NCBI GenBank assembly: GCA_026770705.1
Contig: JANJGN010000031.1
Span: forward strand, 13,020,001 to 13,084,000
Reading direction: 5' to 3'
Length of the DNA: 64,000 nucleotides
DNA from: Isurus oxyrinchus
Taxonomy: Eukaryota
Positions 3,105-54,689 of the stretch are shown piece after piece (the first letter of the stretch is position 1; every line of letters begins with the position of its first letter). A program made the translations under genes and the position numbers. A model generated the notes under the pieces. The model was not told where the DNA came from, made no database searches, and worked only from the letters and a program-made list of their open reading frames with translations.

Positions 3105-3800
3105 AAAAAAAACTTGCATTTTTTTTTTATAGCACGTTCAACAAAATAAAACATTCCAAGATGCTCCTCATGGGACACCGAGACCCATATGGAGATGTCA
3201 GGGAAGATGACCGAAGAAATGGTCAAAGAGGTCGGTTGTAAGGTGTGTCTTAAAGGAGGAAAGTGAGGTCGAGAGGGGGGAGGGGTTTAGGGACGGAATT
3301 CCAGATCTTGGGGCCCAGACAGCTGAAGGCACGGCCGCCAGTGGTGGAGCGATGGGAATCGGGGGGAACGCTCAAGAGGCTGCTTAGAGGAGGGCAGAGA
3401 TCTCGCGGAGGGTTGTGGGCCTGGAGGAGATTACAAAGATAGGGAGGGAGAGAGAGAGGCCATGGAGGGATTTGAAAACAAGGGTGAGAATTTTAAAACC
3501 AGGATGTTGCTGACTGGGAATCCAAGTGAGCCAGGAGGTGGAATAAAACACGGAGAGTGCTGGTAAAACTCATCAGGTCTGGCAGCTTCTGTGGAAGCAG
3601 AGTTCACGTTTTGAGTCCAGTATGACACCTGTTAACCCGTTGAGTCTTTCCAGCACTTTCTGCTTTTTTTTCAGGTCTCCGGCACCTGCAGTATTTTGCT
3701 TTAATTTTAAGTCACTTGGTGAAAGGGATTTGGTGAAAGTTAGGACAAGGGCAGCAGAGTTTTGAGTGGCCTGATGTTTAGGAAGGGTAGAATGTGGGAT
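3105..3800 (-). mobile_element. L2-like LINE 3' remnant interrupted by a Penelope terminal-repeat fragment (~3543-3702)
   Basis: Reverse-complement L2-type 3' end ('..gtgctata..aatgcaagtttt') and body 'aattccagatcttggggccc..gctgaaggcacggccgcc..ggatttgaaaacaagggtgagaattttaaa'. The insert matches the Penelope terminal repeat. Confidence 0.65.
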
Positions 3801-8483: not shown

Positions 8484-8715
8484 CAAAGCAAAATACAGCG
8501 GATGCTGGAAACCTGAAACAAGAGCGGAAAATGCTGGACAAACTCAGCAGGTCTGGCGGCATCCGTGGAGAGAGAAGCAGAGTTAATGTTTCGGGTCCGC
8601 TTGACCCTCCTTTTAGCTCCGAAGACGAGTCATACGGAGGTAAAACGTCAACCCTGCCTCTCGCTCCGCAGCCGCTGTCAGGCCCTGCTGAGATTCCCCC
8701 TGCAATTGTCCAGTT
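8484..8715 (-). mobile_element. Degenerate fold-back Penelope terminal-repeat insertion inside a family A SINE
   Basis: Reverse-complement tail 'aaagcaaaatacagcggatgctggaaa', arm 'actcagcaggtctgg..gtttcgggtcc', then a degenerate inverted arm 'gagtcatacgg..aaaacgtc..cctgctgag'. The SINE (from ~8360) resumes at ~8717 and ends ~8860; 'tgcccatagcaac'/'tgccccacagccac' flank it as a decayed TSD. Confidence 0.6.
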
Positions 8716-13328: not shown

Positions 13329-13651
13329 AGTGAGTTTGCTGCCTCTATGGTGAATGACATGACAGCAGAGATTGTCAGTGGAAGGCTGCCTGTTTCATCT
13401 ATGAAGTATTGTTGGAGTTTGCGGGAGTGCTAGGAGGCGGCGCACTGTCGGTATAAAGACGTCGTGTGCAAGAGGCAGCCCAGCAGAAACTCAGCTGTGA
13501 AACCAGGACAGGTTTCAAAGGAAAAGCGCCGGAAGGAAAGAACGGATCAGCTCCTTTACATCTTGTGCGTAACATAGGGAACGACTGGAGACACCCCTGT
13601 CGATGGTGGGTGACCACGGCAGCTCTGAGAGGGAGCTATGTGATGGGTGAC

Positions 13652-15179
13652 AAAACAATAAACAAAAATACCTGGAAAAACTCAGCAGGTCTGGCAGCAT
13701 CGGCGGAGAGGAACACAGTTAACGTTTCGAGTCCGAATAACCCTTCAACAGAACTAAGGAAAAATAGAAGAGAGGTGAAATATAAGCTGGTTTAAGGGGG
13801 GTTGGGACAGGTAGAGCTGGATAGAGGCCAGTGATAGGTGGAGATTGCCAAAAGTTGTCATAGACAAAAGGACAAAGGGGTGTTGACGGTGGTGATATTA
13901 TCTAAGGAATGTGCTGATAGGTGATATTAAGGGTAGAAAGCAGGATCAGCAAGGTACAGATAGCCCTAGTGGGGGTGGGGGGATGGGATTGAAATAGGCT
14001 AAAAAGTAGAGATAAAACAATGGATGGAAATACATTTAAAAATAATGGAAATAGGTGGGAAAAGAAAAATCTATATAAATTATTGGAAAAAGTGGGGGGG
14101 GGGATGGAGGAGAGAGTTCATGGTCTAAAATTGTTGAACTCAATATTCAGTCCGGAAGGCTGTAAAGTGCCTAGTCGGAAGATGAGGTGCTGTTCCTCCA
14201 GTTTGCGTAGGGCTTCACTGGAACAATGCAGCAAGCCAAGGACGGACATGTGGGCATGAGAGCAGGGTGGGGTGTTGAAATGGCAAGCGACAGGGAGGTC
14301 TGGGTCATGCTTGTGGACAGACCGAAGGTGTTCTGCAAAGCGGTCACCCAGTCTGCGTTTGGTCTCTCCAATGTAGAGGAGACCACATTGGGAGCAACGA
14401 ATGCAGTAGACTAAATTGAGGGAAGTGCAGGTGAAATGCTGCTTCACTTGAAAGGAGTGTTTGGGCCCTTGGACAGTGAGGAGGGGGAAGTAAAGGGGCA
14501 GGTGTTGCACCTTCTGCGGTTGCATGGGAAGGTGCCATGGGAGGGGGTTGAGGTGTAGGGGGTGATGGAGGAGTGGACCAGGGTGTCACGGAGGGAACAA
14601 TCCCTGTGGAATGCCGATGGGGGGGGGTGAAGGGAAGATGTGTTTGGTGGTGGCATCATGCTGGAGTTGGCGGAAATGGCGGAGGATGATCCTTTGAATG
14701 AGGAGGCTGGTGGGGTGATAAGTGAGGACAAGGGGGACCCTATCATGTCTCTGGGAGGGAGGAGAAGGCGTGAGGGCGGATGTGCGGGAGATGGTCCGGA
14801 AACAGTTGAGGGCCCTGTCAACGACCGTGGGTGGAAAACCTCGGTTAAGGAAGAAGGAGGACATGTCAGAGGAACTGTTTTTGAAAGTGGCATCATCAGA
14901 ACAGATGCGACGGAGGCGAAGGAACTGAGAGAATGGGATGGAGTCCTTACAGGAAGCGGGGTGTGAGGAGCTGTAGTCGAGGTAGCTGTGGGAGTCGGTG
15001 GGTTTGTAATGGATATTGGTGGACAGTCTATCACCAGAAATTGAGACAGAGAGGTCAAGGAAGGGAAGGGAAGTGTGGGAGATGGACCATGTGAAAATGA
15101 TGGGGGGGTGGAGACTGGAAGCAAAAATAATAAGTTTGCATTCGCAGATTTCCAGCATCCACAGTTTTTTGCTTTTATA
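13652..15179 (-). mobile_element. Penelope-like retroelement, 5'-truncated (RT C-terminus + GIY-YIG endonuclease)
   Basis: ORF 14586-15296 gives SLPFLDLSVSI..HYKPTDSHSYLDYSSSHP..IPFSQFLRLRRICS; ORF 14118-14525 gives CTSLNLVYCIRCSQCGLLYIGETKRRLGDRFAEH..PVACHFN..LQPSGLN. There is a frameshift in a C-run near 14620. 15-bp TSD tatgtgatgg(g/a)tgac at 13637-13651 and 15180-15194. Confidence 0.93.
14118..14525 (-). pseudogene. GIY-YIG (Uri) endonuclease domain of the Penelope-like element
   Basis: VYCIRC..C..LYIGET.R.L..RF.EH motif is intact, but a frameshift separates it from the RT part. Confidence 0.9.
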
Positions 15180-15725
15180 TATGTGATGGATGACTTTTCC
15201 AGAATACCTTACTGGAACATTGAGACTGTGCAGGTTGAAAGCAGATGATGAACTGATGTGTGTTTCCATGACGTATATCCACTTAATGTTTTGCAATATC
15301 TTTACAGATGTAGAAGTTTGTACTTAACTAGAACATGTTTAACAGTTTCAAAAAAGATCCAATTTCATCCCTCCTTTTGTAAAGGCACTGACTCTTGTTG
15401 GGAATTTTTCACTGGAATGAATCATATCTCTGTACCTTGTTTGAGTAGCCATACCATTAAAGGCTTTTGACTGAGTGGGTGGCATCAGAACCGAAATGTG
15501 TCTTCTTAACACCCACACATTTTCCAGCCAAAGTCTCGAAATTATCCCTTTCATCTGCACCTTCTTATTTTCCACTGCTTTAACAATTTCTTCTCTCTCT
15601 TTATTGGAGCAGAAGGAGGCCATTCAGCCCCTTGAACCTTTCCACCCATCAGTGATATCTTGACTGAGCTGCCCCTGAACTCCATTTACCTGCTTGGTTC
15701 CGTATTTCTTATTAACCTTGCCGAA

Positions 15726-21422: not shown

Positions 21423-22354
21423 TTGGTGCTGATCGAAGTAAAGGACCATGGGATACAGGAGGTCTGATTAGTACCTGGGTTGAACTCCAGACGTTGCTCT
21501 GTAATGTTGGGCATACATGATGTTGTATATATGCTGACATCTTGGAAAAATAATTGCACTGAATCTGAATGGCATGTAAATTTTTGACCCAAGCCTGTTG
21601 CAATATTTAATGCCTTCAGGGAAATGATAATGGTTGGTAACTTGCAAACGTTGACCTTTACGCGAGTGGGTGTAGAGCTGGAGGAACTCTTAAAGCAATT
21701 GTGTTAAGGTGTTTGCAGTCACCTCCTTTTGGTGTAGGAAGGCCGTTCGTCACAAGGACGGACGTGTTGGCCGATTAATGACTGGAGCGTGGGGACGAGT
21801 CATGTGACGGGAACCTCCAGGAATACATTTAGTCACAGTTGGCAACCCAATATAGCCCGGAGGGTACAACCTGCCCTCTGCTCCGTTCAGCGTCCTGACT
21901 AGGCCCCACCTGAAGGCCTGTCAAGAGTGATGAAGATCAGAGCAAGGCCGTGACAGGAAGTCAGTCATGGCCACGAGTTTAAAGGGCCCCCTGCTCTCAA
22001 GGATCGGTCTTCGCTTTTATGGGAGGCTCGGGGGGAGTATCCAGACTGCACAACTGGTCAGTGAGAAACCGGAAAACCACTTCCCGATCCAGCTGCAGTA
22101 GGGTTGGAGATCAGATGAGCAGGCAGGGGCGCAAACAAAGGAGTGAGCTCGTCTTGTCCTTTGGTTGTTGTCCTACCACGGTGGCTTCTGCTGAGTGACC
22201 GAACTCAAAACGATTAGCTGCAGATTTATCCTCGGAGCGTTACTACCTGGAAAGAGAAACAAAACGTCAAGTGAGACCCAGTCTCATGATTCGTGTTAAA
22301 GTGGAATATACATGTTTGAGATGCGTATAAAATAAACACAGCCAACCCCTCATA

Positions 22355-22452
22355 CAAAATAAAAACAGCTGGAAAAGCTCAGCAGGTCTGACAGCATCTG
22401 CGGAGACGGATACAGTTGACGTTTCAAGTCCGTATGACTCTTCACCAGAACA
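22355..22452 (-). mobile_element. Penelope terminal-repeat fragment
   Basis: 'ctggaaaagctcagcaggtctgacagcatc..gttgacgtttcaagtccgtatgactcttcaccagaac'. Confidence 0.75.
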
Positions 22453-26202: not shown

Positions 26203-27200
26203 ATATGAACATACGAACAAGGAGCAGGGAGTAGGTCATTTAGCCCCTCGAGGCTGCTCCGACATTTAATAAGATCATCGCTGATCTGATAGGAACCTGA
26301 AACTTGCATCCCACCTACTCCCCCGATAACCTAATCGATGCCCTGGAGTGACTTTAGGTTATAACATGTGCAAAAACTGTTGCCATTCAGCCCATTGTAC
26401 CTGAAGTCCAGTAGAGTAAGAGGCAATTTAATTGAAACCTCTAAGATCCTGAGGGGTTTTGACGGGGAGGATGTGGGGAGGATTAAAAGCAAAAAACTGC
26501 GGATGCTGGAAATCCAAAACAAAAACAGAAACAGAAATACCTGGAAAACTATCGCATCTATATGGGCAACATGCACACTTCCTGAAATAGCTTAGGATGA
26601 AATTGAAAGATACTGGCATCTTATTAAACTCAATTCTCTACGTGAGGGCTATCTTGCTGACCAAGTATCTATCCACCTCTGCCTTAAAAATATTTAAAGT
26701 CTCTGCTTCCACCACCTTTTCAGGAAGAGAGTTCCAAAGAGTCACAACCCTCTGGGTGAAAGAAATTTCACCTCATCTCTGTTTTAAATGGGCGACCCCT
26801 TATTTTTAATCAGTGACCCCCCCTTAGTTCTAGATTCTTCCACAAGAGGAAACATCCTCTCTACATCCACAGAAACAGAAACACCTGGAAAAAACTCAGC
26901 AGGTCTGGCAGCATCGGCGGAGAAGAGCACAAGTTGACGTTTCGAGTCCTCGTGACCCTTCGACAGAACACAACAGAGAGTTCTGTCGAAGGGTCATGAG
27001 GACTCGAAACATCAACTGTGCTCTTCTCCGCCGATGCTGCCAGACCTGCTGAGTTTTTTCCAGGTATTTCTGTTTCTGTTTTTGTTTTGGATTTCCAGCA
27101 TCCGCAGATTTTTGCTTTTAATCCTCCCCACATCCTCCCTGTCAAAACCCTTAAAGGTTTCAATTAAATTGCCTCTTACTCTACTGGACTTCAGGTACAA
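26203..27200 (-). mobile_element. CR1 3' fragment carrying two insertions
   Basis: Reverse-complement tail 'acatatgaacatacgaaca'; matches CR1 40852-41375; interrupted at 26333-26652 and 26869-27120. Confidence 0.85.
26869..27120 (+). mobile_element. Fold-back Penelope terminal-repeat insertion
   Basis: ~100-bp inverted arms at 26869-26969 and 26980-27079, then a ~40-nt tail. 15-bp TSD atcctc(t/c)c(t/c)acatcc at 26854-26868 and 27121-27135. Confidence 0.9.
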
Positions 27201-27289: not shown

Positions 27290-27890
27290 TATCTCAGGTG
27301 GCAACGCCCTAACCTCCAAGTATTGTGGGTTCAAGTCCCACCCCAGGACTTGAGTTTGAAAATCTTGGCTGTCCCTTCAGCGCAGAACTGAGGGAGGTGT
27401 CGCCTTTCAGTGGAGATGTTAAACTGAGGTAAAAAGAAAAAATTCTGGAAATACCCAGCAGGTCAGGCAGCATTCTGTGGAGAGAGAAACAGGGCTGACA
27501 TTTCAGGTCTGTGACCTCTCATCAGAAGTGTTAAAGCGAGGCCCTCTCTTCTCTCCCAGGTGGATGTATAAGATCCCATGACACAGTTTTGAAGAAGAGC
27601 TGGGGTGGTGGGGAGTGGGGGGTGGTGGGGGGTGGGGGGTGGGGGGGTGGTTATCTCTGATGGCCTGGCCAATATTCATCCCAGCCCAACTCCTCATATA
27701 TATATAAAAAAAGCAGATTATCTGGTCATCATCACGTTGCTGCTTATGGGAGCTGACTGTGTGCAAATTGGCTGCCACTTCTCTTACAATGTAACAGCGA
27801 CTATGCTGCAGAGAAAGCACTTAATTAACTGTAAATCACTTTGGGATATCCTGAGGTCGTGAAAGGCGCTATAGAAATGCAAGTCTTCCT
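27290..27890 (+). mobile_element. DeuSINE (SacSINE1-like) with a Penelope terminal-repeat fragment inserted at ~27431-27528
   Basis: B box 'gggttcaagtcccac'; Deu-type core 'taagatcccatg..gaagaagagc..ggccaatatt..cagattatctggtcat..caaattggctgcc'; tail 'gtgaaaggcgctatagaaatgcaag'. Confidence 0.85.
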
Positions 27891-34951: not shown

Positions 34952-35535
34952 GTCAGCCGACGCTCAGGTGTTAGCATTCTCACCTCCTAGTCACGAGGGT
35001 CTGGATTCAAGTCTGACTCCGGGGTTTGAGCACAGAAATCAAGGCCGACATTCCGGGCGCAGTACTGAGGGCGCACTGCACAGTCGGCGGTGCCGCCTTT
35101 TGGACGAGGCCTTAAACCAAGGGCCCCGTCCGCCTTCTTGGGCAGACGCGAGAGAGGAAAAAGCAAAATCCCCAGGCGCCATTCTGAAGAAGAGCAGGGG
35201 GGAGTTATCCCCGGAGCCCCCGGTCAATATTTACCCCTCAGTCGCCACGAAGGAGGGTCATACGGACTCGACACGTTAACTGTTTCTCTTCTCTCCACGG
35301 GACCCTGTTCGACCTGCTGAGCTTTGCCCAGCGTTTTCTGTCCTTTTGCTTCAGATTTCCAGCACCGGCAGAATTTTTGCTTTTATGCCAGCCGCTTGTG
35401 GGATCTTGCTGTGCGTGTGTCCTACGGCGCAACGGGGGGTGGAGGGGGGGGGTGCTGCACTTCACAAACCGGCCGTAGGGCCCTTTGAGACGTTGGGTGG
35501 TTGTGGACTGTCCTTATATAAATGCAAATCTTTCT
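34952..35535 (+). mobile_element. GC-shifted DeuSINE with a Penelope terminal-repeat insertion (~35248-35385)
   Basis: Collinear with 27290-27890. The insert reads 'agggtcatacggactcgacacgttaactg..gatttccagcacc..tttttgctttta'. Confidence 0.75.
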
Positions 35536-38650: not shown

Positions 38651-40851
38651 CCCAGAACGATCAGTCCCACTCCACCCTCCAGACAGGGCCAGCTGAGGCT
38701 CAGACAGATGGCTGTTACTTGGAAGGCCTGACCACCCCTCATGCCTGCCTGATGTCTCCCCCCATGCCCGTTTCCATGGGGACTGGCCCTCGTCACATTG
38801 TGCTCTGGCCTTGACATCCTGGATTGCTGCCAGCTCGAGCTCCATCGGGGTCAGGGTCGGGATTGGGGACCGGTCCATGCTTCCCCCACCCTCCCCCCCC
38901 CCCCCCCCCACCCCCCACCACCCCTCACCCCCCCTCCCCTCCTGTATCCTGTGCCCTCTTCTCCTGTGGAATGGCGGCAGTGGCTGCACTAGAGCGAACC
39001 CAAGGCCTGATCGCTCTGCACCATTGCTACAGGGTCTGTGACGCTGAAGCTGCTCTGGGGAAACCTTGCGCAGGTCAGCATCCGCTGACTGAGCTGCGGC
39101 CATTCCTTCCACAGGTCGGTCTCTCCCTCCGCAGCAACCGCATCATCACACTACCCCATTGGCTGCTCTCGAGAGGAGCCTGGGGTTGGTCGCACCCCCT
39201 GGCAGAATGGAGAAGGTCGTTGAGCAGCTTGCTGCACTGCAGCCAGGTTCTCCGGGAGACTGCTCACCTCCCTCCCTGACCACCATGTGGACACTCTTGG
39301 CTCGCTGGGAAACCCCACCCCTTCAGTCCCCGGGGAAGGGGGCCTCCTGCCTCACCTGGGCAGCTTGGGGAAGACAGGCAGGGGGTCTTCACTGAGCCGT
39401 GGGGCCACCCAGGCTGCTGCTTCCATCATGGCTACAACCGGGTCCCACAGGCTCTCTGATTGGCTGGATCGATGGCGGCTGCTTGTCTGAGGCCGATGTG
39501 GGCTGGGCTACATGTTGTGAGGCAGATGAAGGATGGCAGGAGTCTGAAGACGGGGTAGTCCCAGGCAGATGAGTTCTTCTCTCCGACTAAAAGATTCTGG
39601 AAATATCTGCATTCAGTCCTCAGGTGCTGGTGGCCCTTTAAACATTCTGCCAACATCCTCATCTGCATCAGGTGACGATGTGGCCACTGTCTTACCTCCC
39701 TCTCCCTGGATGGAGATTTGTCAGTGTTGTATTTTAGGTCACGGAGATATGCAGAGATGACACCAGTCTCCATGTCTGAACAGGGGCTTTAAAATGTCTG
39801 CAGTCACTGGCTTACTGTTTGCTTTTAGCTCCTCATTCTCAGTGGCCACACCCAGGCTTGACTAATAGCACACAGAACAGAGTTAGCAGGCACCCAGAAT
39901 CAAACACCGAACAATTGAACAGTTGAAATCTACTGTTGGTGAACTGCTAATTGGCTCACTGGCATGAGGCTGTAACGGGAGAGGGTGGGGGGTCAGAGGC
40001 CTGCACCTAAGGCAGTCAACAAAGCTATCAGTCAGGACAACTACCCACTTCCCAGGATCCGAGAACTATCAGCCGCAGCCTCATTTCATGACTCCACAGC
40101 CTCGATAGCTTTTACATTTGGACTGCAGGTTTTTTTTGGTAATAAACTGCTGGGTTAGATCTTGCTAAATTAGTAGGGTTGGCACGGGCACAGAAGTGCT
40201 CCAAGTGAACCGGTGAACCTGCTGAGTTTCTAGAAAATTCTGCCAGCACCAACTCTAAAGCATGACAACGAACGCCATGAGATGTGAGAGCAAGCTGCCC
40301 ATTCCATGTGGAGTGTGAAACTGAAAATTCAATTTTAAAGCAGCAATTATCCTAATTATAAAACACAGCCTGTCTGGAGCATAGCTTGCCTTTAACAGCC
40401 CAGCCTTAAATCAAATTCTCAAGTGCTCGGGAGAAATAATAGGGCCCTGTCGGGTGTGCGCGTGCGTAGGTTAGTTTTTAATAAAAATAGAAACTGCTGG
40501 AAGAATCAGCAAGTTTGGCAGTGTCGGTGGAGAAGGAAACAAGCCCAGTTCGATCATTTGTCACCTGAACGCTTCAAAAATACCCACCAAGCCTATGGGT
40601 CACCCTTCCTGATGCCTCCCGATGTTCCCCGGTGGTCAGTTTTCTTTGCTAACGCTCTGTTAGCCTGGAACCGCAGGCCGGGGTTTCCCAGCGCCCATGG
40701 CAGGGGCTGGCGAGCTACTGAAATCTCCATTCACGTCGGCGGGACCGGAAAATCCCAGCCGCGGTATCTGTTATTAAAAAGGGTAAGGAAGTAATTATCC
40801 AACAGGATGGACCTGTTTTTGCTTGGAATAATCAGCAATGAGATAATGAGC

Positions 40852-48231: not shown

Positions 48232-49715
48232 ACCATAGAACCATAGAAAAGTTACAGCACAGAGGGAGGCCATTCAGCCCATCTTGTCCATGCCAGCCCG
48301 AGGACACCCAGGTGCCCTTTCTAATCCCACCTTCCTGCACCCGGCCCATAGCCCTGCAGCTTACAGCACTTAAGATGCAGACCCAGGTACTTTTTAAAAG
48401 AGTTTAGAGTTTCTGCCTCTACCACCAACTTGGGCAGCGAATTCCAGACACCCACTACCCTCTGTGTAAAAAAGTTCTTCCTTGTGTCCCCCCTACAACT
48501 TCTGCCACTTATCTTGAATCTATGTCCCCTGGTTCTAGAATTCTCCACCAAGGGAAACAATTTTATCCTGTCCACTCTATCTGTTCCCCTCATAATTTTG
48601 TACACCTCAATCAAGTCACCTCTCAGCCTTCTTTGTTCTAAGGAAAATAACCCCAACCTATCCAATCTCTCCACGTAGCTACACTTTTCTAACCCTGGCA
48701 ACATTCTTGTAAACCTCCTCTGCACTCTCTCCAGAGCTATTACGTCCTTCCTGTAATATGGTGACCAGAACTGCACACAATACTCCAGTTGTGGCCTCAC
48801 CAGTGTTTTATACAATTCCAACATTATATCCTTATGTTTATATACTATACCTCTACCAATGAAGGAGAGCATTCTATATGCCTTTTTTACAACCTTGTCT
48901 ACTTGAACTGCTGCCTTCAGGGACCTGTGTACTTGTATACCAAGATCTGTCACTTCATCTACCCCACTTAGTATATTCCCATTTATTGTGTGATCCCTGT
49001 AACTGTTTGACCTCCCTAAATGTATGACCTCACACTTCTTTATGTTAAAATCCATCTGCCACTTTACCGCCCACTCCACCAACCCATCTATATCGTTTTG
49101 GAGATTATGGTTATCCTCTCCACTATCCACTACTCGGCCAATCTTTGTGTCATCTGCAAATTTCCCAATCGTGCCCCCCACATTCACGCCCAAATCGTTA
49201 ATATATAACACAAACAGCAAGGGTCCCAACACCGAGCCCTGTGGAACACCACTTGAGACAACTTTCCGTTCACAAGGGCATCCATCGACCATTACCCTTT
49301 GTTTCCTGTTACAAAGCCAACATTTTATCCAGTTTGCCACATTACCCAGAATCCCATGGGCTTTGACTTTCCTGACCAATCTGCCATGTGGGTCCTTGTC
49401 AAATGCCTTGCTAAAATCCATGTACACAACATCCACTGCACTACCTTCATCAACCCCTGCCACTTCCTCAAAGAATTCAATCAAATTCCTTCCTTTAATA
49501 AATCCATGCTGACCACCCTTGACTAGTCCATGCCTTTCCACATAACAGTTAATCCTATGTAAGACTAACTAGCCTATAATTGTTTGGCATTTCCTTTGAT
49601 CCCCTTTTAATCCCCTTAAATGGAACTACGCTTGCATTTCTCCAGTCCTCAGGTACCTCCCCTGTATCTCGTGAAGATTGGAAAATCATCCTCAGAGCAT
49701 CTGCTGTCTCCTCCT
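48232..49715 (-). mobile_element. CR1 LINE, 5'-truncated, relatively young
   Basis: Contains the 406-aa ORF; minus-strand 3' tail ctatggttctatgg. Confidence 0.95.
48321..49541 (-). CDS. CR1 ORF2 reverse transcriptase and C-terminal domain (406 aa open; truncated, probably not expressed)
   Basis: QHGF, VDVVYMDFSKAFDK, SGVPQGSVLGPLLF.LYINDL, KFADDTK, LVRPQLEYCVQFWSP, RRLRGDLIEVYKI, FFTQRVV..WNSLP. A small deletion follows QHGFIKGR and the APE endonuclease is absent. Confidence 0.85.
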   Translation of the reverse strand: MERHGLVKGGQHGFIKGRNLIEFFEEVAGVDEGSAVDVVYMDFSKAFDKDPHGRLVRKVKAHGILGNVANWIKCWLCNRKQRVMVDGCPCERKVVSSGVPQGSVLGPLLFVLYINDLGVNVGGTIGKFADDTKIGRVVDSGEDNHNLQNDIDGLVEWAVKWQMDFNIKKCEVIHLGRSNSYRDHTINGNILSGVDEVTDLGIQVHRSLKAAVQVDKVVKKAYRMLSFIGRGIVYKHKDIMLELYKTLVRPQLEYCVQFWSPYYRKDVIALERVQRRFTRMLPGLEKCSYVERLDRLGLFSLEQRRLRGDLIEVYKIMRGTDRVDRIKLFPLVENSRTRGHRFKISGRSCRGDTRKNFFTQRVVGVWNSLPKLVVEAETLNSFKKYLGLHLKCCKLQGYGPGAGRWD

Positions 49716-51740: not shown

Positions 51741-52256
51741 TCGTCTTGCAACAGGCTGTTAGCGGATTTAAGCGGGTGGATCACTGTGTCAAAAACGACT
51801 TTGAATGGTTTAAGAGTCATTTGAGGATTAAACCGTTGTCAGGCGTTCTTGAGTGGCTGCTTTTTATATAAGCATGCATGCCCGAGATATGGAGGAGGCT
51901 CAACATATCAGATTTCTGGCCCTGTCTTCTATTAATCTCTTGATAGCTTGCTGGTTCCTGGATAATTCACTCACCTCTTTCTGTCACCTCTCCCTACACT
52001 TACCACAAGTTTGTAACAGGGGCGGGGTGGGGGGGGGAGGCGGGGGAGGGTAGAGAAATCTTTGGAAGGAACGGTAAGATATTCAGTAAAGAGCATTCAC
52101 GGTCAGAACTGCATGCGGATTCCCAAGAAGTCATATCGCACTCGAAACATTAACTCTTCTTTCTTTCTCTCCACAGACGCTGCCAGACCGGCTGAGCTTC
52201 TCCAGCACCTTTGGTTTTTGTTGGTTTCAGAGCTGCGCCTGCTGTAGAAACATAGT

Positions 52257-53402: not shown

Positions 53403-53542
53403 GGGGAGAGGGGGAATGAAGGAAGACATCAATCTCATCAGTTCACAGGAGCAATGATGACCACTCCTAGCTGGCTTCTCAATTGTGGTGTGTCGAACCG
53501 CAAACCCAGAAGGAAAATCCAGTAAAACCTGGAATTGGCCAG

Positions 53543-53770
53543 AACAAAAACAGAATTACCTGGAAAAACTCAGCAGGTCTGGCAGCATCGGCGGAGAAGA
53601 AAAGAGTTGACGTTTCGAGTCCTCATGACCCTTCTGTCGAAGGGTCATGAGGACTCGAAACGTCAACTCTTTTCTTCTCCGCCGATGCTGCCAGACCTGC
53701 TGAGTTTTTCCAGGTAATTCTGTTTTTGTTTTGGATTTCCAGCATCCGCAGTTTTGTTTTGTCTTTATCT
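53543..53770 (+). mobile_element. Perfect fold-back Penelope terminal-repeat insertion
   Basis: 92-bp perfect inverted arms at 53543-53634 and 53639-53730, a 4-nt loop and a 40-nt tail; perfect 14-bp TSD ctggaattggccag at 53529-53542 and 53771-53784. Confidence 0.95.
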
Positions 53771-54689
53771 CTGGAATTGGCCAGTACCAGTCCAAACTGG
53801 AGTTACATTGTAAGGTACACAAGGCCAGTTCAGACCAGGACGCATTTCCTAGTTTTACTGGCTTTTCTTTCTGGGAATGGAAGCCCTGGTGGGAGACAGC
53901 TTAATGGTGTGTTCTCCGTTCTCAAAACCTTGGACTGAAAAGTACTGGATGGATCGATGGAATTAAAAGTGTGGATTAGGGGAGTTTAAGACCTTGGCAG
54001 AAGGTAAGGATATCACAAGCATTTATGATTGCAAAGTCATTTAATTTTGGCGTAGGTTTCGCAGAATGTGTTTAAGACACTCAATTAAATTGATTTAGCC
54101 CGACAAAGAGAATTCTTCTCCTCTTAAGTGCCAGAAATAGAGGTAGAGGGTCAAGCTTGCCAAAAGCTGAGGTTGGGATTCCAGGGGTGACATTAGTTAG
54201 GAGCCCCAAGGAAATCAGAGGCTAATACTCAGGCTTCCTGTCTTTCTATAATATGCTGGAATAAGTAGATGAGGATTGGGTCGGTGTTTAAATCATTGAC
54301 TGATACAGCACTCAGGCCTGTCAATCCTGCCTGTGGATCTTTGAAGGAACTATCCCATTAGTCTCACAAGTTCCCCACAGCCCTGCCAATCCTCTTCTCT
54401 CCAACTGCCTTTTTGAAATTTGCCACTGACTCTCCAACCTCCCTCAGGCAGAGCATTCCAGATGATAACTTGCCACAATAAAAACATTCTCCTCATCTCC
54501 CCTTGAGTTCTTCGACGAATTATCTTAAATCTGTGGTACCTACGCTACTTCCAATGGAAACTGTTTCTCCTTAGAGACATTCATAATTTTGAATATCATC
54601 ATTAAATCTCTAGTCTCTCCATGAAACTGAAGTCCCTCACTCCTGATATAACTCTGGTAAATCCCCTTTGTGCTCTTTCTTTGACATCA

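Follow-up and report, generated by a model that had tools for sequence, protein, structure and literature searches.

Palindromic stubs of an abundant Penelope-like retroelement in Isurus oxyrinchus, and their possible origin by double target priming

When a retroelement leaves a palindrome at its insertion site, the question arises whether the palindrome was formed anew at that site or copied from a master hairpin, and which step of the element's replication could have produced it. The locus considered here lies in a window of 64,000 nucleotides of the Isurus oxyrinchus genome (contig JANJGN010000031.1, positions 13,020,001 to 13,084,000; positions given below are those of the window). The insertion at 53529..53784 consists of two arms that are exact reverse complements over 92 bp, with 0 mismatches, separated by the loop TGTC (53635-53638) and followed by an unpaired 40-nt tail between the right arm and the right target site duplication (TSD). 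The TSD, CTGGAATTGGCCAG, is exact over 14 bp, with no further match on either side (Table 1). A previous sequence-only reading had described mismatch-free arms, a 4-nt loop, a perfect 14-bp TSD and a non-coding insertion; all of these were confirmed on the window sequence, and no ORF was found within the insertion. The long arm (136 nt, 53635-53770) matches the terminal repeat of the full-length unit L160 at 100% identity, and the palindrome is therefore not a product of chance. It can be taken as a Penelope-like stub with near certainty, and as a real but ordinary case of an insertion type that is already known. It represents a dead end left by an endonuclease-positive Penelope-like retroelement that is abundant in the genome, with no function indicated. 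Element coordinates are counted from 0 at window position 53708. The parent sequence at the junction reads AGTTCTGTCGAAGG, and thus already contains TTC-TGTC-GAA, while the CTG that opens the right TSD equals the continuation of the element (ATCT-CTG, as read in tandem copies), giving a 3-nt priming microhomology.

Table 1. Features of the palindromic insertion, its surroundings and other Penelope-like copies in the window.
Feature	Position	Strand	Basis and remarks
Older short hairpin-like host repeat, split by the insertion	53506..53881	.	Right part matched 49 times at 76-87%, counting the window and C747
Left TSD, 14 bp	53529..53542	+	Exact match to 53771-53784; motif single in empty-site paralogues of the host repeat; family mode 14
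Inverted arm without tail	53543..53634	-	Element coordinates +22 to -69; putative cDNA primed at the inner RT start site
Junction TTC-TGTC-GAA	53632..53641	+	Self-complementary 3-nt microhomology flanking the 4-nt loop; native to the parent sequence
Minimal hammerhead-like motif	53634..53668	+	Core CUGUCGA, bulged A, 5-bp stem II, GAAA, palindromic ACGU; read against the min-HHR description in the accessible text of PMC4209133
Sense arm, 3' part of pLTR	53639..53730	+	Exact reverse complement of the inverted arm; within the stretch identical to L160
Penelope 'tail', 40 nt	53731..53770	+	At one end only; putative outer RT start site at the tail 3' end
Right TSD	53771..53784	+	Exact match to the left TSD; initial CTG also fits the element continuation ATCT-CTG
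Fold-back stub, related subfamily, 10-nt spacer	26869..27118	+	92.5% self-inverted; also in C747
Decayed fold-back stub, older family	8484..8700	+	Decayed arms readable by eye; CUGAAGA-type core
Decayed, asymmetric fold-back stub	3541..3702	+	Weak: 76% self-inverted over 38 nt
Decayed 5'-truncated Penelope-like copy, related subfamily, GIY-YIG end	13651..15200	-	Pfam GIY-YIG E 2.3e-4

In regard to the parent family, its 42-nt tail-bearing 3' end has 42,028 exact matches in the 4.98-Gb assembly and the window's own tail variant 1,118, both counts being inflated by haplotigs. [quoted passage not shown] The Penelope origin proposed earlier is borne out by this parent and by the GIY-YIG relative within the window, which shows 83% identity to L090 over 1565 nt. 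Several features of endonuclease-positive (EN+) Penelope-like elements (PLEs) were found in the family, namely RT and GIY-YIG in a single ORF, partial tandems, an inverted 5'-truncated copy, a tail at one end and a TSD. According to the available portions of PMC3846280 (Adineta vaga Pen2a), PMC8557442 and PMC2377424 (D. virilis Penelope), EN+ PLE insertions likewise carry an inverted 5'-truncated repeat beside a direct one, and share the palindromic junction, the one-end tail, the TSD, the partial tandems and the parent with RT and GIY-YIG; the tail there is optional and 30-40 nt long. In contrast, the palindromic stubs studied here lack the internal part, they make up about one third of the sampled copies, and their ends pile up at one site.

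Tail-bearing copies at the places listed first for contigs C1 and C2 made up the sample, which is not random. After removal of 3 duplicates and one double-counted two-tail locus, it comprised 171 distinct copies, 169 of which were parsed; 4 duplicates among the 34 rows of a second inverted-locus set were dropped, and copies cut by the fetched length were excluded from the counts of ends. A head-to-head inverted arm was present in 86 of the 169 parsed copies, and 63 of the 169 were short palindromes. In some long copies (L153, L204, L195, L202, L154, L063, L079, L111), the adjacent inverted piece maps within the ORF; some of these end at the fetched length, and others may be L1-like inversions.

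The starts of the arms point to two sites. The outer end of the inverted arm falls at +17..+28 in 68 of the 86 loci, and among solo copies with a TSD (9 of the 17 solo rows), 5 end at +24..+28 and 4 at +57..+60, so that both sites appear able to start an insertion. Exactly one tail was found in 59 of 60 inverted loci chosen regardless of tail (30/30 and 29/30), which speaks for paired use of the two sites, as independent choice would yield one tail in about half of the loci. The two arms also seem to derive from one template: 51 non-CpG variants are common to both arms, against a permuted mean of 5.6 and maximum of 18, and the arms agree at site -57 in 60 of 62 callable loci, although flips after the insertion can be an alternative source of common variants. 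Arm lengths are coupled as well, with both arms short in 55 loci, both long in 26 and only 5 discordant (Fisher p 1e-16). As presented in the accessible text of PMC11167929, the Poseidon element of Anolis carolinensis (PAc) extends both target strands in vitro, two RT start sites bound its tail, which corresponds to the interval between them, and the hammerhead is dispensable; that text holds no explanation of inverted insertions. Two start sites bounding the tail are common to PAc and the family described here, while the sites lie inside the ORF in PAc and upstream of the likely start codon (+97) here.

We consider it probable, judging from the arrangement of the copies, that such insertions arise by double target priming on one RNA at the two start sites, with 5' run-off about 30 nt below a TATA-like box and subsequent joining of the cDNAs. 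In this process, the GIY-YIG nuclease would nick both target strands 14 nt apart, and reverse transcription of a single transcript would be primed by both 3' ends, by one of them at the end of the tail (~+60) and by the other ~38 nt further in (~+22). If priming occurred at the copy of these sites near the RNA 5' end, the template would end for both cDNAs at about -78 to -82, where transcription likely starts. The free cDNA ends could then be joined head to head through microhomology or short inserts, TTC/GAA in the case of the window, and later template switching between the arms could flip the loop and might keep the arms identical. The hairpin would thus be a by-product, and ribozyme cleavage would not be needed. 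In L1 twin priming, a single RNA likewise serves two target strands as the template for priming, and microhomology joins the cDNAs. The copied parts of the RNA do not overlap in L1, and an inversion results, whereas here the arms overlap and a palindrome is formed.

According to a different explanation, which we find unlikely, a single tail-primed cDNA would fold over at its 3' end, with GAA pairing to TTC, and be copied back to ~+22, the nuclease would resolve the structure, and later central deletions and spacer flips would diversify the junctions. Such snap-back accounts at once for shared variants, coupled lengths and single tails, and it predicts the orientation seen in the window, with TGTC on the tailed strand. 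Self-priming is a proposal of PMC3846280, and resolution of the tail by the nuclease one of PMC8557442, as far as their accessible text goes; an apparent loop flip at the window locus, described below, points to rearrangement after the insertion. Flips, however, could only bring the arm-length ratio closer to 50:50. Counting differences of more than 10 nt, the tail-less arm exceeds the tailed one in 32 loci and falls short of it in 10 (p 0.0009), which simple snap-back cannot give. Between 11 and 30 nt the counts are 18 and 2; above 30 nt the bias loses significance (14:8, p 0.29), and above 100 nt it stands at 10:7. Use of the +24..+28 site alone in TSD-flanked solo copies, and the commonness of fully symmetric zero-loop junctions and central inserts, likewise argue against snap-back.

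Double priming could also be combined with another cause of the inner arm ends. Among 245 arm ends, 66 lie at -83..-76, the 5' edge of hammerhead helix I, and 6 at -91..-84. In 66 of 69 long copies, the TATA-like TATATTTCA precedes the AG at -78 by 29-32 nt although the spacers diverge, and in an older Penelope-like family TATAAA or TATAAC stands 31 nt before the equivalent A in four long copies among 30 loci (L293, L298, L299, L305). In that older family, a TATAAA-type box is thus located 31 nt before hammerhead helix I. From the sequence arrangement, we infer a putative polymerase II start at -78 or -79 with run-off of the cDNA. The RNA runs, available as contigs only, list no start pile-ups, and the deep contig coverage that they show at the pLTR end does not count as evidence of a start. 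The accessible text of PMC2377424 assigns to D. virilis Penelope a TATA-less internal promoter with a start upstream of an intron, so that a promoter reading does not simply transfer between the elements. Alternatively, the pile-up at -78..-82 could mark stalling or release at the 5' edge of a folded hammerhead instead of a transcription start, which we regard as improbable. The boundary and the 5' strand of helix I fall together, which would also explain the conserved AG, and a cap-derived extra G was not found, G being present in 1 of 9 solo copies; a G excess among the first 100 matches listed, of which 57 have a G, traces to junction microhomology. Independent stalls, on the other hand, would yield far more than 5 discordant loci in 86, the TATA-like spacing is conserved in two families, and the folding energy of the hammerhead with its 5' region is no better than that of shuffled sequences (z 0.8 to 1.1). 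A spliced exon 1 as the cause of the AG/TT boundary was rejected: no shared sequence extends beyond the ends, and 33 arms reach -79..-82 in genomic sequence. L090 has at +6..+93 a donor-like CAG/GTAATT and an acceptor-like site before the likely start codon, enclosing both RT start sites; no splice joint for this candidate intron was present among the best 15 of 19 matches in four RNA contig sets.

Returning to whether the hairpins were copied from one another, 57 distinct junctions were counted among the 63 short palindromes, which agrees with the previous proposal of de novo formation. Two overlapping genome searches gave 6,343 and 4,146 near-symmetric junction loci, and the proposal that palindromes are deposited routinely also holds. 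The junctions of the 86 inverted loci comprise 36 with microhomology, 13 blunt and 37 with inserts, and the TSD length has its mode at 14 in the family, with 13-15 bp in 64 of 135 tested copies. Many copies with identical junctions had been named beforehand as a sign of a conventional MITE or SINE family. Such copies do exist, as the exact 40-nt window junction occurs at 306 places in the genome, and these matches are what would favour a non-autonomous master hairpin amplified to hundreds of copies. They nevertheless make up only ~5% of the 6,343 loci, and the same-junction loci differ in TSD, in short-arm length and in subfamily variants, the latter present in both arms. Since the parent already reads TTC-TGTC-GAA, recurrent use of a 3-nt microhomology explains the sharing. 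Together with the distinctness of most junctions and the window's tail subfamily, which spans the whole range of structures, this makes a master hairpin very unlikely. Some same-junction loci (L005, L006, L012, L022, L029) carry short tandem re-copies that restart at GAAGGG after the junction, which suggests repeated template jumps.

The MITE and SINE-like classes were rejected as well. A MITE disagrees with ends made asymmetric by the tail, with the diversity of junctions and with a TSD that is variable, mostly 13-15 bp, rather than short and fixed. A SINE- or retrozyme-like master would require a fixed structure derived from few masters, which is not seen, and the short re-copies (L005, L006, L012, L029) are not hammerhead arrays. 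Regarding a miRNA precursor, the window gave no Rfam match at gathering score.

Fold points do cluster at the hammerhead-like motif, as noticed previously. The further proposal that templates are ribozyme-cut RNAs is hardly credible for this family, with 3 of the 245 arm ends at the predicted cut (-47..-40) against the 66 at the 5' edge of helix I. The predicted cut of the window copy lies at 53664/53665, helix I has only 2 bp there, and the arms run ~30 nt past the cut, so the template of this insertion was uncut. The core CTGTCGA, with U at position 6, is present in 95 of the 111 arms that span the motif, and the Rfam scan of the window gave no hammerhead match, only a chance stem match. U at position 6 of the hammerhead core impairs cleavage. 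By its sequence, the core of the family is probably inactive. Ribozyme-cut templates find a weak hint in the older family with a canonical core, where the predicted cut is the point at which ~3 of 30 arms stop, in a set selected differently from the 245 ends; the cut site GTTAAC of that family is, however, itself a palindromic microhomology, and the dispensability of the hammerhead in vitro (accessible text of PMC11167929) also argues against them. Minimal hammerheads of metazoan PLEs, as described in the available part of PMC4209133, have in common with the motif found here the bulged A before stem II, palindromic 15.2-16.2 and a short helix I, and their occurrence in opposite-strand pairs 100-700 bp apart was already noted there. 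The core CUGUCGA (U6), and a junction that cuts through the core, are different here.

Four fold-back insertions had been counted in the 64 kb. The palindrome at 53529 and the copy at 26869 are clear, the latter with a flanking repeat of only 8 nt, while the copy at 3543 is weak and the one at 8484 has neither a self-inverted BLAST match nor a TSD. The four do not form one family, as the 8484 copy belongs to the older one with the CUGAAGA-type core, and the 3543 copy looks similarly old. More decayed fragments of Penelope-like terminal repeats were recovered by BLAST with the element arm at 22352-22443, 35254-35383, 52140-52222, 27445-27504, 40480-40539 and 26493-26548. An unrelated LINE-like fragment with a 415-aa open frame (RVT_1 E 5.6e-20) occupies 48321-49568 on the minus strand.

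The insertion site itself gives information about age. In six paralogues of the host repeat, the TSD-like motif is present once, and the left and right parts are joined without an insert, these being empty sites. The host repeat (also L273-L282) makes up a family of short inverted repeats, whose internal unit of ~63 nt is tandemly repeated at some loci (C32, C3, C11). Contig C747 (290 kb) is collinear with the window over the alignable 31.5 kb, with 292 mismatches (0.93%); it is probably the second haplotype and looks like an unpurged haplotig of C31. Its copy of the locus (L272, G000:C747:28446-31575) has the same insertion and TSD, identical arms and one change in the tail, and the insertion is therefore older than the split of the two copies. 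The loop is inverted between them, GACA in C747 and TGTC in the window. Arms of at least 90 nt are perfect in 10 of 31 same-junction loci, which makes the absence of mismatches unremarkable. The very recent event of the sequence-only reading is thus not supported.

The loop may have flipped after the insertion by template switching, which may also keep the arms identical. Inversion of hairpin loops and repair of stems by this route are described in the accessible text of PMC8794818, with the loop inverted, the stems unchanged and the same process able to repair them; there the phenomenon is known from rRNA genes, while here it concerns one case in two copies of one locus. The flip is a warning not to date such hairpins from arm identity. 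As it also indicates that spacers can invert after the insertion, the loop-orientation split of 18:12 among inverted loci was dropped as evidence for two cDNAs. A consensus error in one contig could also underlie the loop disagreement, but an assembly artefact is next to impossible for the insertion as a whole, given the exact TSD, the empty-site paralogues, the same insertion in the independent contig C747 and the TSD-like repeats, 11-16 bp long, that 27 of 30 same-junction loci carry.

The layout of such insertions is already in print (accessible text of PMC3846280, PMC8557442 and PMC4209133), and the earlier suggestion of an under-described system is not supported. The available portion of PMC3846280 presents the inverted pLTR, the tail, the TSD, the junction palindromes and a proposal of self-priming, and that of PMC8557442 a general scheme of PLE insertion, with the mechanism called unresolved. 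No published statement of double or twin priming for PLEs was found in our search, which covered literature outside subscription journals, Repbase and supplements. The accessible parts of a preprint from 2026, which treats retrozymes as non-autonomous sequences of PLEs, hold no passage on palindromes or tails, and those of PMC5753468 nothing to add on known PLE insertions.

While the single insertion is ordinary, the family matters, because the formation of inverted and tailed PLE insertions is stated as open in the accessible text of PMC8557442 and PMC11167929. For the in vitro system that already exists, sharp predictions follow from the present counts: every inverted insertion should have exactly one tail, its two arms should come from one RNA, and run-off should occur at a single site. 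Extrapolation of 31 of 85 to the 42,028 tail-bearing ends gives roughly 15,000 short palindromes from this family, a figure to be read with the non-random sample and the included haplotigs in mind, and such palindromes are a possible source of dsRNA and cruciforms. More tentatively, and with slightly less confidence than an even chance would call for, the stubs could be read as a record of the replication cycle, in which a dimeric RT-nuclease primes the two target strands on one RNA at sites ~38 nt apart, the leading cDNA is displaced by the enzyme that trails, and both cDNAs run off at the hammerhead's 5' edge, where a TATA-directed start would lie. If this were true, palindromes, tail and inverted pLTR would be covered by one model for all EN+ PLEs, a family could reach more than 40,000 copies although its hammerhead core is probably inactive, and the hairpins would continue to flip and repair themselves in the germ line.
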